Below the pieces are notes generated by a model that saw only the letters and a list, made by a program, of their open reading frames with translations, ran no database searches and was not told the DNA's origin. This document shows positions 45,843 to 49,702 of a DNA stretch of 64,000 nucleotides, one piece after another (within the stretch, counting starts at the first letter, position 1; each line of letters starts with the position of its first letter). The position numbers were made by a program, and so were the translations under genes. This DNA is from Clostridia bacterium (lineage in GTDB: Bacteria > Bacillota > Clostridia > Oscillospirales > CAG-272): NCBI GenBank assembly GCA_017461365.1, contig JAFTYG010000056.1, forward strand, positions 7,089 through 71,088. The letters run 5' to 3'.

Positions 45843-46122
45843 ATAAGTCGGTTATTTATTTTTATGCAAAATGTGATAAAATATAAAGTCTCTTATGTGT
45901 AATGCTACAAAATTGGGAGAAATATATTGACATTTTGTGGAATTGTGCTATAATAAAATCGGATGTTAGTCTAAATCTATACCATAAAAAGGAGGAAAAA
46001 GACAAATGACTAATAAGAAAACCACCAAAAGAGCGCTGATAGCGAGTGTGATCTCTCTATTGCTCTGCTTCACGATGCTTCTTGGTACTACTTACGCGTG
46101 GTTTACCGACAGTGTAACGAGT
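45843..46122 (+). repeat. ~280-bp near-identical direct repeat, copy 1 (upstream region, promoter, leader and first 39 codons)
   Basis: Matches 47765-48043 with only a handful of differences by eye. Similarity drops sharply after ...GACAGTGTAACGAGT. Confidence 0.85.
45927..45954 (+). promoter_or_regulatory. sigma-A type promoter of TasA-like gene 1
   Basis: TTGACA (45927-45932), 16 nt, TGcTATAAT (45946-45954). Confidence 0.6.
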
Positions 46123-47658
46123 ACGGGCAACATTATTAAGACGGGTAACCTTGACGTTGAAATGTATTGGGCTGACGGAACAAAGGCTGTTCCCGCTGAC
46201 GAAAACGGTTGGACAGACGCGTCAACAGGCGCAATATTTGACTATCAGAATTGGGAGCCCGGTTACACCGAGGTACGCCACATCAAGATCGCAAATGAGG
46301 GTACGCTTTCGTTCAAGTACAAGGTTATAATAGCTGCTGAGGGTGAATTTTCCGATCTTGTTGACGTTATCGACGTTTATTACTACGATCCTGCCGAGCA
46401 GATCGCGAACAGAAATGATCTCGGTGAGGATACGGCTTACGGAACGCTCAGAGAGGCTCTCGACGGTATGGTAGATACCGCAAACGGAACTCTTGCAGGC
46501 GGAGAGGCAGTTACTGTCACCATCGCGCTTAAGATGCGTGAGAGCGCAGGAAACGATTACGAGAATAAGAGCGTCGGCGCGTTTTCGATACAGGTTCTGG
46601 CAACCCAAAATCCTGAGGAAGAGGACAGCTTTGACGATCAGTATGATGCCGATGCTGAATGGCCTCCGATAATTCCTTCGGTATCCGTTATGCAGTCCTT
46701 GCTCGAGGACGGTGAAAATCCTACGGGTAAGGTGATTTTCGGTACATTCTCCGAGTACGCTGATGACGTTGAGGGATATACCGGAACAGACGTAAACGGC
46801 GACGGAAGCCTTATGGTCTACCGTGTTCCTTCTGTTGCAACGCTTGCGGAAAATTCTGCTGCTAAAGATACGGTCTATTTCCTTGCAGAGGATAAGATCG
46901 CGCTTCCTGCGAACTCTTCCAAAATGTTTTACGAAATGGGAAATCTTACTGAGATCGACGCATCGAATCTTGATTTTTCGAATGTAACAAATGCTTTCTG
47001 TATGTTTGCCTATTGCGCAAATCTTACCTCTATCAAGGGTACGGAAAATTGGGACCTTTCCAACGTGACAAATATGCAGTCTTTCTTCTACGGATGTAAC
47101 AAGCTTACGGACATCGACGTTTCGGAGTGGGATACCTCGAACGTTACCAATATGAGAATGGTATTCTTCCGCTGCTATGCTCTTGACAACGAGACGCTCA
47201 AGGGTGTTGAAAGCTGGGATGTAAGCAACGTAAGTAATTTCTATAGTATGTTCAAGCACGCAAGAGGACTTACAAGTCTCGATCTCAGCAATTGGGATAC
47301 CTCCAGCGCGACCAATATGTCTCATCTCTTCGCAAATATCGGCGGCTTGGAGTATCTTGATCTTTCGGGATTTGATACATCTAAGGTAACGGACATGAGC
47401 TGGATGTTCTACGATGGTTCAAAGCTTACCACTATCCTTGTCGGTGACGGTTGGACTACGGCTGCTCTTGATCCCGCAAAGCCCACCTGCTTCTACAACA
47501 ATCAAGCACTTGTAGGCGGCAATGGAACCGCTTGGCTTGACGTTTGCGATATGGCAAATGCTAACAGACCTTGGGAATCCTCCGCAAAGCTTGTTTACGC
47601 CGTTGTTGACGGCGGCGAGGCTGCGCCCGGTCTTCTTACCTACAAATCGGCTGAATAA
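46006..47658 (+). CDS. Secreted TasA/camelysin-like domain protein with SipW-type signal peptide, fused to DUF285/BspA-type LRR repeats
   Basis: N-terminal MTNKKTTKRALIASVISLLLCFTMLLGTTYAWFTD. A ~190-aa domain paralogous to the next gene. C-terminal repeats ...SNVTNM..MF..C..L... Confidence 0.8.
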   Translation: MTNKKTTKRALIASVISLLLCFTMLLGTTYAWFTDSVTSTGNIIKTGNLDVEMYWADGTKAVPADENGWTDASTGAIFDYQNWEPGYTEVRHIKIANEGTLSFKYKVIIAAEGEFSDLVDVIDVYYYDPAEQIANRNDLGEDTAYGTLREALDGMVDTANGTLAGGEAVTVTIALKMRESAGNDYENKSVGAFSIQVLATQNPEEEDSFDDQYDADAEWPPIIPSVSVMQSLLEDGENPTGKVIFGTFSEYADDVEGYTGTDVNGDGSLMVYRVPSVATLAENSAAKDTVYFLAEDKIALPANSSKMFYEMGNLTEIDASNLDFSNVTNAFCMFAYCANLTSIKGTENWDLSNVTNMQSFFYGCNKLTDIDVSEWDTSNVTNMRMVFFRCYALDNETLKGVESWDVSNVSNFYSMFKHARGLTSLDLSNWDTSSATNMSHLFANIGGLEYLDLSGFDTSKVTDMSWMFYDGSKLTTILVGDGWTTAALDPAKPTCFYNNQALVGGNGTAWLDVCDMANANRPWESSAKLVYAVVDGGEAAPGLLTYKSAE

Positions 47659-47668
47659 CTTTAATTTT

Positions 47669-47708
47669 TCCGCCTGTCTTTCTTTTGAGGGACAGGCGGA
47701 AATTTTTT
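47669..47708 (+). terminator. intrinsic terminator
   Basis: TCCGCCTGTC...GACAGGCGGA followed by AATTTTTTT. Confidence 0.75.
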
Positions 47709-47764
47709 TGCGTTTGACGGTGGTTTCGGGGAGTGTAATGAAATATGCGGACACGGGATTTGGT

Positions 47765-48043
47765 ATAAGTCGATTATTTATTTTTATACAAAATGTGATA
47801 AAATATAAAGTCTCTTATGTGTAATGCTACAAAATTGGGAGAAATATATTGACATTTTGTGGAATTATGCTATAATAAAATCGGATGTTAGTCTAAATCT
47901 ATATCACAAAGGAGGAAAAAAGACAAATGACTAATAAGAAAACCACCAAAAGAGCGCTGATAGCGAGTGTGATCTCTCTGTTACTCTGCTTCACGATGCT
48001 TCTTGGTACTACTTACGCGTGGTTTACCGACAGTGTAACGAGT
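47765..48043 (+). repeat. ~280-bp near-identical direct repeat, copy 2
   Basis: See 45843-46122. Offset is ~1921-1922 nt. Confidence 0.85.
47849..47876 (+). promoter_or_regulatory. sigma-A type promoter of TasA-like gene 2
   Basis: TTGACA (47849-47854), 16 nt, TGcTATAAT (47868-47876). Confidence 0.6.
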
Positions 48044-49702
48044 GCAGAAAATATCATCACAGCGGGAAATCTCGATGTGACGCTTGAATTCGCTGACGCT
48101 AAGGCTGATCCCGAGGCTACGGAAACAGAATGGACCGACGCGTCAAACACGCCGATCTTCACATATGAGAACTGGGAGCCCGGCTACGTTGAGGCGCACC
48201 ACATCAAGATCACCAACGCGGGTACACTTGACCTTAAGTACGTGATACATATCGAGATTGAGGACGGCGGAAGGATCGATGACGTTCAAAAGGTTATTGA
48301 CATATATTACGTTGATCCTGCCGTAAAGGTTGAGAGCCGCGCCGATCTTAGCGAAGAAATGAAGCTCGGAACGTTGGAATACGTTCTCAGCAATCCCGAT
48401 ATGAACGGCAAGCTTCTTGCGGGTGAGTCGGACACTATTACTCTTGCTCTTAAGATGCAGGAGAGCGCGGGCAATGATTACAGAGATATGCAGATAGGTC
48501 CGTTTACGATCAAGCTTCTTGCAACTCAGCTTGCTTCTGAGGATGACAGCTTTGACAACAAGTATGATGCGGATGCAATGTATCCTGCCGACGCTTGGGA
48601 CGGAAAGGCTGATACCTCTTGGTACAACGATACCGATACGAATTTTATTATTGGAACTGCTGAACAGCTTGCGGGATTGGCAGAGCTTGTAGACGATGGT
48701 GAGACGTTTGAGGGTAAGACGGTTAGGTTGGACAATAACATTGATCTCGAAGCTTATAATGAAGAGGGAGAGCTTATTAGCTTCAATCCTGTGGGTTCGT
48801 ATGCATTCGATAAGGCTTTCAAGGGTACGTTCAACGGTCAGGGACATATTATATATAATATGTATGAGAATGGTTGGGCGTTAGGCAGTGGTCTTTGGGA
48901 TGGCGATGATTGCGGACTTGGCTTGTTTGGTCTCATCGAAGATGCTACCGTTCAAAATTTAAAAATTGATGGTGCAGATCTTCCCTCGGAAGCAAATTTG
49001 ATCGGTTCTGTTGCAGGCGCAGCTTACGGAGAGTGCTTGTTTGAGAACATCACGGTTACCAATACATCTATGGGAAATCACTCTTATTATAGCGGCGGTG
49101 TTGTTGGTTGGGCATCAGGAAATCATAAATACATCAACTGCGATCTCGATGAAAGTAACGTTATAGCTTCGCAGTGGGGTGACTTCAACAATGCTAACGG
49201 CGGTATTATCGGCGGTGCAGGTAAGAGAGGTACTTATTATTTTGAGGATTGCGATGTTGCGTGTGTATTGGATGCATTTAATGATGTTACTTCTGCATAT
49301 GAATGGTATGCTTACCGTAATTGCGGAATGTTGATCGGTAATACAGGTCGTACGGAAGTAATTGACGGTACGACGTATGCAGCGGCTGACAATGTAACGA
49401 CTGTAAATTGTACAGTAACATACGGTGATTGGGCAAATTATCATTACTGTCAGTTTAATGCTATGGGGTATCCTTGGGTTCGTGTTGAGGAGGGATATAG
49501 CACACACGCTTACGGTAATGCGAGATACGATTATGCAACAGATGCTAATGGTAACGAAGTTAAGGACGAAAACCACGTTCACAACGACGGCGAAGGTCAT
49601 AATCTGCTCTTAGTATTTGATCAGCTGTTCGGTGGTTCACAAGGCGGTGTTTACGGTACGGCAAGTCATGACGGCGTAACCGTTATCTACAACAACAAGT
49701 AA
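47927..49702 (+). CDS. Secreted TasA/camelysin-like domain protein with SipW-type signal peptide, fused to GLUG-like beta-helix module
   Basis: The first 39 residues are identical to gene 1. The C-terminus has GTAEQLAGLAELV..G.TFEGKTV.L.NNIDL and FKGTFNGQGHIIYN, resembling the N-terminal part of the 54487-56673 protein. Confidence 0.8.
   Translation: MTNKKTTKRALIASVISLLLCFTMLLGTTYAWFTDSVTSAENIITAGNLDVTLEFADAKADPEATETEWTDASNTPIFTYENWEPGYVEAHHIKITNAGTLDLKYVIHIEIEDGGRIDDVQKVIDIYYVDPAVKVESRADLSEEMKLGTLEYVLSNPDMNGKLLAGESDTITLALKMQESAGNDYRDMQIGPFTIKLLATQLASEDDSFDNKYDADAMYPADAWDGKADTSWYNDTDTNFIIGTAEQLAGLAELVDDGETFEGKTVRLDNNIDLEAYNEEGELISFNPVGSYAFDKAFKGTFNGQGHIIYNMYENGWALGSGLWDGDDCGLGLFGLIEDATVQNLKIDGADLPSEANLIGSVAGAAYGECLFENITVTNTSMGNHSYYSGGVVGWASGNHKYINCDLDESNVIASQWGDFNNANGGIIGGAGKRGTYYFEDCDVACVLDAFNDVTSAYEWYAYRNCGMLIGNTGRTEVIDGTTYAAADNVTTVNCTVTYGDWANYHYCQFNAMGYPWVRVEEGYSTHAYGNARYDYATDANGNEVKDENHVHNDGEGHNLLLVFDQLFGGSQGGVYGTASHDGVTVIYNNK

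Follow-up and report, generated by a model that had tools for sequence, protein, structure and literature searches.

Two adjacent genes on the stretch of Clostridia bacterium DNA that was analyzed (contig JAFTYG010000056.1; 64,000 nucleotides (nt), hereafter the window), denoted genes 1 and 2, encode members of a very large clade of modular surface proteins that have a TasA-like domain as their N-terminal handle. A clade of TasA-like handles joined to passengers is not described in the literature that we searched, where the characterized members of the TasA superfamily (TasA, CalY, BsaA, AbpA, AbpX, cannulae, and threads) are small single-domain subunits and where term searches returned no mention of multidomain or fused members. 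Genes 1 and 2 fall outside the size range of single-domain subunits (160–260 amino acids (aa)), since their products comprise 550 and 591 aa and carry passengers of 330 and 370 aa, respectively. We favor, with slightly better than even confidence, the reading that these proteins are SipW-processed subunits of the TasA superfamily that would tether their passengers to fibers by donor-strand exchange, polymerization being a step that we infer.

The products of genes 1 and 2 have an identical 39-aa N-terminus, both beginning MTNKKTTKRALIASVISLLLCFTMLLGTTYAWFTDSVTS, and their N-domains exhibit 59% identity over 222 aa (BLASTP E 4e-80). No similarity was detected between the two by BLASTP beyond the N-domain. 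An initial annotation of this DNA had described the same pair; the open reading frame (ORF) coordinates and lengths that it gave were verified, and the motifs that it listed as common to both proteins are present, except that gene 2 encodes VIDIYY rather than VIDVYY. Both exact proteins are on record at NCBI, from a metagenome-assembled genome in which they lie on a 91.7-kb contig, and their NCBI names (Table 1) are silent on a TasA-like N-terminal domain.

Both proteins scored above the cut-off of the SipW-dependent signal peptide model TIGR04088 (24.1 bits for gene 1 and 23.4 bits for gene 2; cut-off 19) and above that of the Pfam model PF12389 (Peptidase_M73/camelysin, the TasA family; 31.9 and 35.3 bits, respectively; cut-off 22.5). 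As judged from these scores, the resemblance of genes 1 and 2 to both models is far above chance. In a 564-aa relative from the cultured Cuneatibacter caecimuris, the match to PF12389 spans nearly the entire profile (positions 3–191 of 196). Two family alignments were used for further comparison: A1, which comprised 37 N-domain sequences, and A3, which comprised 52 full-length sequences. Comparison by hhalign of the A1 family profile with TasA of Bacillus subtilis (a sequence validated with the TasA equivalog model NF046066, 513.8 bits versus a cut-off of 450) yielded an E-value of 2.2e-5 over 79 columns, which extend from the signal peptide and cleavage site through the donor-strand region to the first strands. 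In this alignment, GGTWA|AFNDIKS...GTLDL of TasA lies opposite GTTYA|WFTDSVTS...GNLDV of the family, such that A27|A28 of TasA faces A31|W32 of the family. By analogy to TasA, the products of genes 1 and 2 are probably cleaved at A31|W32. Residues T29, A31, W32, F33, T34, D35, N42, I44, G47, and L49 are near-invariant in the family. An acidic motif in the linker that follows the domain, E-x-D-S-F-x-x-x-Y-D, is also kept across the family, with E205, D207, and D214 invariant and Y213 found in 36 of 37 sequences of A1.

Neither gene product matched the TasA equivalog NF046066 at E ≤ 1 (at least 450 bits required), and by this comparison genes 1 and 2 are not TasA orthologs proper. The BsaA family model TIGR04090 likewise yielded no match to either product. 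An isopeptide lock of the Asn-Glu-Lys type described for BsaA was considered and was rejected as unsupported because the Lys is not conserved: N42 and E84 are present in 36 and 37 of the 37 A1 sequences, respectively, K94 is present in 23 of 37, and E84 is present in just 21 of the 52 sequences of A3. A metalloprotease function, as implied by the name Peptidase_M73, was also discarded; neither protein has an HEXXH motif, and published work treats the peptidase assignment as mistaken.

Structural models point in the same direction as the profile comparisons. A monomeric AlphaFold2 (AF2) model of gene 2 residues 1–226, built on A1 (predicted local distance difference test (pLDDT) 84.9), comprised a signal helix at residues 4–34, an unstructured segment at ~35–50, and nine β-strands; an independent AF2 model of full-length gene 2 (pLDDT 85.1) placed the helix at residues 6–34. 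When the N-domain model was compared to the PDB with Foldseek, the highest ranking match was the TasA fiber 8AUR (E 1e-4, probability 1.0), followed by the PapG pilin domain (rank 2), the archaeal bundling pili 7UEG (rank 3), and the Sulfolobus 0406 thread 7PNB (rank 5), with the chaperone-usher pilins CfaB, FimF, and FimG interleaved among the top matches. The three highest ranking matches to the full-length model were 8AUR (E 2.3e-3, probability 1.0), 7PNB, and 7UEG. These fold matches are all subunits of donor-strand filaments. Sequence-based searches of the PDB with the single N-domain, A1, or the full-length A3 profile returned nothing meaningful, and among these PDB searches only comparison of folds linked the domain to TasA. 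Collectively, these results bear out the claims of the initial annotation that the proteins have a SipW-cognate signal peptide (TIGR04088 above cut-off in both) and a TasA/camelysin-type N-domain (PF12389 above cut-off in both, the TasA fiber as top fold match for two models, and the hhalign E-value of 2.2e-5). The AlphaFold modeling that it had proposed, performed here for the monomer, returned a TasA-like jelly-roll with 8AUR as first match, and the failure to match TasA/camelysin models that it had named as decisive against its view was not seen, as both proteins passed PF12389.

At the predicted mature N-terminus, residues 31–43 are disordered in the monomer model (pLDDT < 50) yet near-invariant across the family. 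The donor strand by which one TasA subunit complements the next consists of residues 28–38 (PMC9674648), and the disordered yet conserved N-terminal strand of genes 1 and 2 resembles this donor strand. By that analogy, residues 32 to ~45 (32–50 at widest) are a putative donor strand.

To what extent genes 1 and 2 are typical is apparent from the size and composition of the family. In an exhaustive hidden Markov model (HMM) search, the N-domain profile matched 10,198 cluster representatives at E ≤ 1e-3, with 4,374 of these at E ≤ 1e-30. The best 150 representatives were nearly all 400–1,184 aa in length with the domain at residues 1–220, and the clade delimited at E ≤ 1e-30 was mostly from animal-gut and rumen Clostridia, with protein lengths of 400 to nearly 2,000 aa. 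At least 593 matching loci were recovered from GTDB species genomes; the best 80 are nearly all from metagenome-assembled genomes of gut or rumen Clostridia (Eubacteriales, Oscillospiraceae, Acutalibacteraceae, and Ruminococcus), the one cultured strain among them being C. caecimuris DSM 29486. Family genes are often arranged as tandem arrays of two to five. C-terminal extensions of 150 aa or more were present in 110 of 115 complete close relatives encoded in the best loci (median 425 aa, maximum 1,746 aa). Large size, which the initial annotation had viewed as unusual, is therefore the norm in this clade. The members of A1 were chosen by length from stand-alone homologs of ~220 aa recovered in the first search, and many of these homologs are probably fragments encoded on ~1-kb contigs, since only 5 of the 115 assembled relatives are without a long extension.

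The passengers carried by these handles are diverse and resemble adhesins or enzymes. Among the C-terminal parts of 104 relatives that were screened with Pfam, LRR_5 (BspA type) accounted for the largest share (13), followed by Beta_helix (9), Pectate_lyase_5 (4), Peptidase_M26_N (3), and Glug (3), while Big_2, Flg_new, and others were found once each. Homolog P0105 combines PF12389 with a dockerin domain (PF00404). The passenger of gene 1 is a leucine-rich repeat (LRR) module of the DUF285/BspA type, with strong matches to PF03382 (111.2 bits; cut-off 25) and to TIGR02167 in five stretches (152.2 bits; cut-off 30). Its repeats are ~26 aa long, and seven MF..C..L...WD.SNVTNM units were delineated with a manually set register, in agreement with the at least seven units claimed previously; the full W/F-D-x-S-x-V/A-T/S-N/D motif is present in six units (residues 322, 349, 375, 404, 430, and 456).

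The passenger of gene 2 is of a different kind. Gene 2 had no Pfam match at E ≤ 1 besides PF12389, with PF07581 (GLUG) and PF05342 (Peptidase_M26_N) unmatched, and its C-terminus had no match in NCBIfam. Thus, among the profiles that the initial annotation had proposed to search, those for the signal peptide (TIGR04088), camelysin/TasA, and DUF285 were matched and that for GLUG was not matched in gene 2. The GLUG or β-helix module that it had described as common to gene 2 and the secreted 728-aa protein encoded downstream (Table 1) was recovered in part: hhalign aligned gene 2 residues 238–412 with residues 29–217 of the latter (probability 96.9%, E 1.9e-10), and by this profile comparison the first ~175 aa of the gene 2 C-module are homologous to the N-terminal part of the 728-aa protein. 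A search with the gene 2 C-module returned 903 matches, mostly to proteins of 550–653 aa with C-modules that are 57–77% identical, some of which carry the PGAP name ‘SipW-dependent-type signal peptide-containing protein’; PF05342 is carried by homolog P0236 as well as by the 3 of 104 relatives noted above.

The C-module of gene 2 was modeled confidently (pLDDT mostly > 90), and no PDB relative was found by fold, with the full-length model, or by profile. Among the viral predicted structures of BFVD, the third-ranking match was a ‘putative immunoglobulin A1 protease’ (E 1.1e-5, root-mean-square deviation 3.9 Å, 316 columns), and right-handed β-helix proteins matched the C-module at lower probability. 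The best BFVD match, A0A8S5VQE1 (570 aa, E 3e-10, 606 columns aligned), is from a contig classed as viral and may share the two-domain architecture. Among 52 orthologs of gene 2, the motif H550-x-H552-N553-x-x-E556-x-H558 (49574–49600) is invariant, as are C446, C508, and many D, R, W, and Y residues. This pattern suggests that the H/E motif is a metal or active site and not a plain spacer, and that the passenger of gene 2 may be an enzyme or a specific binder instead of a generic adhesin.

Handles and passengers appear to have been exchanged among genomes. Proteins that share the gene 2 C-module (median 63% identity) have N-domains that are only ~20% identical to that of gene 2 (maximum 43%), compared to 59.5% identity between the N-domains of gene 2 and its neighbor gene 1. 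One passenger has therefore been joined to very different TasA-like handles across genomes.

Signal peptidases of the SipW type are frequently encoded beside family members. A strict SGSM.P...GDN pattern identified a single SipW-like gene, since copies with DSMS or DSMA, of which there are many, escape it; jackhmmer seeded from this one case (an ORF of locus L029) identified 60. These 60 genes lie within 10 kb of family genes in 36 of 81 related loci, with two copies in 22 loci, and all are co-oriented with the family genes at a median distance of 478 bp. Among five copies sampled, four passed TIGR02228 (signal peptidase I, archaeal/ER type), and all five strongly matched NF046067 (SipW) as the top or second match, at scores below its equivalog cut-off. 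In three loci (L041, L012, and L057), the gene order is a SipW-like gene, three small TasA-like genes, a second SipW-like gene, and then the large genes; in two others (L001 and L082), a TetR gene is followed by SipW genes, large genes, and small ORFs. In many related loci, one of the two SipW-like genes is canonical (SGSMEP) and the other is longer and divergent, with DSMS, DSMA, or DSMA-E at the catalytic-serine box and a charged, coiled-coil-like tail. Examples of SipW-like genes from such loci are at L041:5591-6388 and 9079-9921 and at L001:2810-3535; the divergent copy at L041:5591-6388 scores below the TIGR02228 cut-off.

The front ends of genes 1 and 2 are shared to an extent that sets them apart from the remainder of the two genes. 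The 146 nt upstream of the genes are 97% identical, and the first 39 codons contain two synonymous differences, while from codon 40 onward nearly every codon differs and divergence approaches saturation. This near-identical 5' tract with its sharp boundary indicates recent gene conversion between genes 1 and 2. A third paralog, g3, ends ~4.7 kb beyond the left edge of the window and has a repetitive C-module unlike that of either gene 1 or gene 2. Paralogs are thus dispersed along the contig and not solely in tandem. Relative to genes 1 and 2, g3 has three differences in the first 39 residues and is only ~41% identical over the rest of the N-domain. The codons for these 39 residues in g3 have many synonymous changes, and conservation of the front end in this gene is therefore attributable to selection rather than to conversion.

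A 22-nt element, TTATGTGTAATGCTACAAAATT, is invariant at genes 1, 2, and g3, where it is followed in each case by a consensus sigma-70-type promoter. It occurs only twice in the window, versus 0 expected, and was not found in 86 other loci. Based on this distribution, the element is a candidate operator for a shared regulator. The common signal peptide, N-terminal strand, and promoter element together indicate that genes 1, 2, and g3 are probably co-regulated and that their products could co-assemble.

The contig of a related metagenomic locus (L083; ENA ERZ28018670, 6,101 bp) encodes a protein that belongs to the same 90% cluster as the gene 2 product and is 100% identical to it over the 373 C-terminal residues. 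This contig begins just 108 nt before the end of gene 1, and the apparent site of the break in assembly is the duplicated tract of ~290 bp that covers the promoter and 5' end. In short-read assemblies, duplications of this kind may split family loci and may help to explain the many truncated ‘220-aa’ entries in databases.

We propose the following mechanism for these proteins. The products of genes 1, 2, and g3 would be exported by Sec as modular surface proteins and cleaved at A31|W32 by a SipW-type (archaeal/ER-type) peptidase encoded elsewhere in the genome. Cleavage would expose the N-terminal strand (WFTDSVTS..N.I..G.L) ahead of the TasA-like jelly-roll, and this strand would insert into the β-sandwich of a neighboring TasA-like subunit (another copy, a paralog, or a small major subunit) by donor-strand exchange, as in TasA, BsaA, and AbpA. 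The jelly-roll would serve as a self-assembling tether from which the passenger hangs on a flexible acidic linker of ~15 aa, such that passengers would be displayed on a cell-associated fiber, along its length or at one end. The passenger of gene 1 would be a PARCEL/BspA-type LRR adhesin module and that of gene 2 a module similar to GLUG or the N-terminal part of IgA1 proteases, possibly one that binds metal; the passengers may function in adhesion. We infer, as the initial annotation had suggested conditionally, that such fibers would display binding modules. Direct reading of the C-termini (...LLTYKSAE and ...VTVIYNNK) revealed no LPXTG motif, and neither SLH nor any other anchor domain was matched in genes 1 and 2 in Pfam or NCBIfam, which leaves the N-domain as the sole visible route to association with the cell. 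Precedents for the individual steps support a fiber tether: the donor strand of TasA, the surface oligomers that are still formed by BsaA with FAST fused to its C-terminus (bioRxiv 10.1101/2024.11.04.621531), and the heterofilaments built by TasA and CalY of Bacillus cereus (PMC13082335).

Several observations weigh against a fiber tether. The matches to PF12389 cover only profile positions 3–89 in gene 1 and 3–82 in gene 2, and sequence similarity of the window proteins to PF12389 and TasA is thus confined to the first half of the domain. Template modeling (TM) scores are low, at 0.33–0.39 overall and 0.33–0.35 to TasA, in part because the models include the signal helix and the passenger, and they therefore indicate similarity at the level of the family and not a close relationship. 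Donor-strand exchange in genes 1 and 2 is drawn from analogy and from models of monomers, and passengers of 330–370 aa on every subunit might sterically block homopolymerization. The N-domains of paralogs within a locus are only modestly more similar (median 52% identity) than those of different loci (47%), and the nearest relative is a paralog from the same locus in only 22 of 76 cases. Homogenization of N-domains within loci is therefore weakly supported by these comparisons, and co-evolution for co-assembly is not strongly supported family-wide. Lastly, neither a SipW-type gene nor a small TasA-like ‘major subunit’ gene was found in the window or its 8.4-kb left extension (72 kb in total); for SipW, all ORFs of at least 50–60 aa were searched with jackhmmer and a purpose-built HMM at E ≤ 10, which upholds the earlier statement that the window has no sipW. 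The missing sipW does not refute a fiber tether because sipW is within reach in only 5 of the 16 related loci that are flanked on each side by 6 kb or more. Orthologs of gene 2 are also solitary among housekeeping genes in two other loci (L085 and L086); with no sipW nearby, the window locus looks like a satellite locus.

The main alternative, which we regard as rather unlikely, is that the large proteins do not homopolymerize but are terminal (tip or base) subunits on fibers of small (~200 aa) TasA-like subunits from a separate sipW locus. Each would donate its N-terminal strand to the first small subunit, in the manner of TapA with TasA or of a tip adhesin in chaperone-usher pili. It draws on the three loci in which three small TasA-like genes and two SipW-like genes lie beside the large ones, on the proposal that TapA provides the first donor strand to TasA (PMC9674648), on bulky passengers being at odds with dense packing of a fiber, and on the return of pilin domains of two-domain adhesins, such as PapG, in the fold search. 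However, the strand motif of the small proteins (G.T[FY]ALF[ST]D...) is unlike the near-invariant AWFTDSVTS of the large ones, many loci comprise large members only, in arrays of two to five, the large proteins have kept a full jelly-roll, and no small paralog is encoded on the 72 kb examined.

A still less probable explanation, to which we give little credence, is that the proteins are secreted or surface monomers that do not polymerize, with a self-complemented TasA-like stalk or carrier domain and a leader that is merely an export signal, and that they act as free or loosely wall-bound adhesins or enzymes. Self-complemented monomeric TasA exists (5OF2; PMC9674648), the AF2 monomers fold confidently without a partner, and the solitary orthologs of gene 2, together with the conservation and invariant H, E, D, and R residues of its C-module, would suit an enzyme or binder that may need no fiber. 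Export alone, however, hardly explains a strand that is near-invariant yet disordered in thousands of proteins. The best fold neighbors are all donor-strand filament subunits, the tandem arrays with dedicated SipW peptidases mirror known fiber operons, and an adhesin released with no anchor would be of little use. Display from the membrane by an N-terminal helix that is an uncleaved or slowly cleaved signal-anchor, yielding a single-pass tethered adhesin, is highly improbable: the lack of a SipW gene on the 72 kb examined, the long predicted helix (residues 4–34 or 6–34), and the apparently membrane-anchored BsaA oligomers of Clostridium perfringens, in which SipW cleavage is proposed to occur only after the next subunit docks, are in its favor, but the leader fits the model of SipW-cleaved proteins, including the TasA cleavage context, dedicated peptidases accompany the family in 36 of 81 related loci, and ~190 aa plus a linker may not reach through a Gram-positive wall.

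A broader form of the fiber tether can be put forward tentatively, as an idea that is possible if somewhat unlikely: a modular display fiber, that is, a chaperone-free, SipW-primed donor-strand polymer in which each subunit carries a different passenger (adhesin or enzyme) and paralogs co-polymerize through their common strand. The strand would be held constant across the three dispersed genes by selection, plus gene conversion between genes 1 and 2, and domain shuffling would exchange passengers among genomes. Were this the case, gut Clostridia would possess programmable heteropolymeric surface fibers of a class that is both very large and undescribed, a Gram-positive counterpart of decorated pili with some resemblance to modular display of the cellulosome type. 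If the handle polymerizes, it would represent a new means of tethering adhesins in Gram-positive anaerobes without sortase or LPXTG, could account for the attachment of many uncultured gut Clostridia to hosts, to fiber, or to each other, and would provide a natural scaffold for engineered display.

The features of the three paralogs and of the related secreted protein are compiled in Table 1. Genes 1 and 2 are separate transcription units, since each has its own promoter that matches the consensus at 12 of 12 positions and its own terminator.

Table 1. Coordinates of features of genes 1, 2, and g3 and of the related secreted protein (window positions, except those prefixed L087).
Feature	Position	Strand	Remarks
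Gene 1	46006-47658	+	550 aa; NCBI MBQ8850117.1, ‘BspA family leucine-rich repeat surface protein’
Gene 1 conversion tract, copy 1	45843-46122	+	Promoter, ribosome-binding site, signal peptide, first 8 mature residues
Gene 1 22-nt element	45893-45914	+	Just upstream of -35
Gene 1 promoter	45927-45954	+	TTGACA-16-TATAAT, extended -10 TG; consensus 12/12
Gene 1 signal peptide, SipW-type (predicted), aa 1-31	46006-46098	+	TIGR04088
Gene 1 TasA/camelysin-like N-domain, aa 32-220	46099-46665	+	PF12389; A1 HMM 327.7 bits
Gene 1 PARCEL/DUF285 (BspA-like) LRR module	46891-47466	+	Seven units; PF03382, TIGR02167
Gene 1 intrinsic terminator (3')	47667-47702	+	16-bp stem, then T-run
Gene 2	47927-49702	+	591 aa; NCBI MBQ8850118.1, ‘hypothetical protein IJ011_07300’
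Gene 2 conversion tract, copy 2	47765-48043	+	Same parts as copy 1
Gene 2 22-nt element	47815-47836	+	Just upstream of -35
Gene 2 promoter	47849-47876	+	TTGACA-16-TATAAT with TG; consensus 12/12
Gene 2 signal peptide, SipW-type (predicted), aa 1-31	47927-48019	+	TIGR04088; AF2 helix
Gene 2 TasA-like N-domain, aa 32-220	48020-48586	+	PF12389; AF2 model; Foldseek
Gene 2 interdomain linker, aa 204-218	48536-48580	+	pLDDT < 50, predicted disordered
Gene 2 C-terminal passenger, aa 222-591	48590-49699	+	GLUG/IgA1-protease-N-like; homologs, pLDDT, BFVD
Gene 2 intrinsic terminator (3')	49738-49769	+	Intrinsic-terminator call
g3, third paralog	L087:1863-3749	+	628 aa; PF12389 27.3 bits; same contig
g3 22-nt element	L087 ~1751-1772		Just upstream of -35
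Secreted 728-aa protein	54487-56673	+	Ordinary signal peptide; no PF12389 or TIGR04088 match

A spacer of ~760 bp (45165–45926) without a credible ORF separates the promoter of gene 1 from the terminator of the preceding gene; it includes a 30-nt inverted repeat, the arms of which are 359 nt apart (45193–45222 and 45582–45611), and a hairpin at 45617–45667. An Rfam search for riboswitches (e.g., c-di-GMP) across 44900–50100 returned only a chance miRNA match (E 0.6). Just downstream of gene 2, an AraC-family gene (49932–50903) is followed by a same-strand run of genes for exported proteins, namely two Exo_endo_phos proteins (51020 and 59354), a solute-binding protein (52950), the GLUG-like 728-aa protein (54487), and a GDSL/CE2 esterase (56898). 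The region from 49932 to 61027 may be a glycan or nucleic-acid scavenging locus, and the order gene 2, AraC, and Exo_endo_phos recurs on metagenome contig L083. A von Willebrand factor A (vWA)/YfbK-type protein is encoded ~5.5 kb upstream of the pair (38962–40554). The sipW-bsaA-bsaB operon of C. perfringens also includes a vWA protein, BsaC; the proximity in the window is probably a coincidence because unrelated housekeeping genes intervene.

Among the known systems that are closest to genes 1 and 2 is the TasA system of B. subtilis, which includes SipW and TapA. The context of the SipW leader is alike (GTWA|AFND in TasA versus TTYA|WFTD in genes 1 and 2), and a conserved N-terminal strand, a jelly-roll, and PF12389 are common to both. 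However, TasA is a single-domain protein of 261 aa, whereas genes 1 and 2 encode 550 and 591 aa with passengers of 330–370 aa, have no adjacent sipW or tapA (no search aimed at tapA was made), and are monocistronic with promoters of their own. TasA and CalY of B. cereus belong to the same Pfam family, and their heterofilaments (PMC13082335) provide a model for co-assembly of genes 1, 2, and g3, but these proteins are single-domain and require the CapP chaperone, unlike the multidomain products of genes 1 and 2. The BsaA/BsaB system of C. perfringens (sipW-bsaA-bsaB-bsaC) is a clostridial TasA family that is processed by SipW and has several paralogs per locus; donor-strand exchange has been proposed for BsaA, and its oligomers tolerate a C-terminal FAST fusion. 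BsaA is a single-domain protein, and its subunits are locked by an N35-E56-K74 isopeptide triad, of which genes 1 and 2 keep Asn42 and Glu84 with no conserved Lys.

Archaeal filaments (AbpA 7UEG, Saci_0406 7PNB, AbpX, and cannulae), which rank second to fifth in fold for the models described here, share the jelly-roll core and assemble by chaperone-free donor-strand complementation, often with a gene for a TIGR02228-type peptidase adjacent. Their subunits differ in being single-domain proteins of ~160–180 aa, some of them calcium-dependent, and passengers were not found by term search of the literature searched. Sortase-dependent LPXTG pilins and adhesins differ from genes 1 and 2 in that the latter are without a C-terminal sorting signal. 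The C-module of gene 1 is a clear member of the BspA/PARCEL proteins (DUF285, TIGR02167), in agreement with its NCBI name, but those proteins are surface lipoproteins (Listeria and Mycoplasma; NCBIfam and Pfam descriptions), whereas the module of gene 1 is carried on a TasA-like domain with a SipW-type leader. In the tip adhesins of chaperone-usher pili (FimH and PapG), a pilin β-sandwich joins the fiber by strand complementation and bears a binding domain, which is the arrangement proposed here for genes 1 and 2. The order of domains is reversed in FimH and PapG, with an N-terminal lectin and a C-terminal pilin domain, and these Gram-negative proteins depend on a periplasmic chaperone and an usher. 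Moreover, they have no donor strand of their own, whereas genes 1 and 2 keep theirs, and the likeness is thus one of analogy and not of membership.

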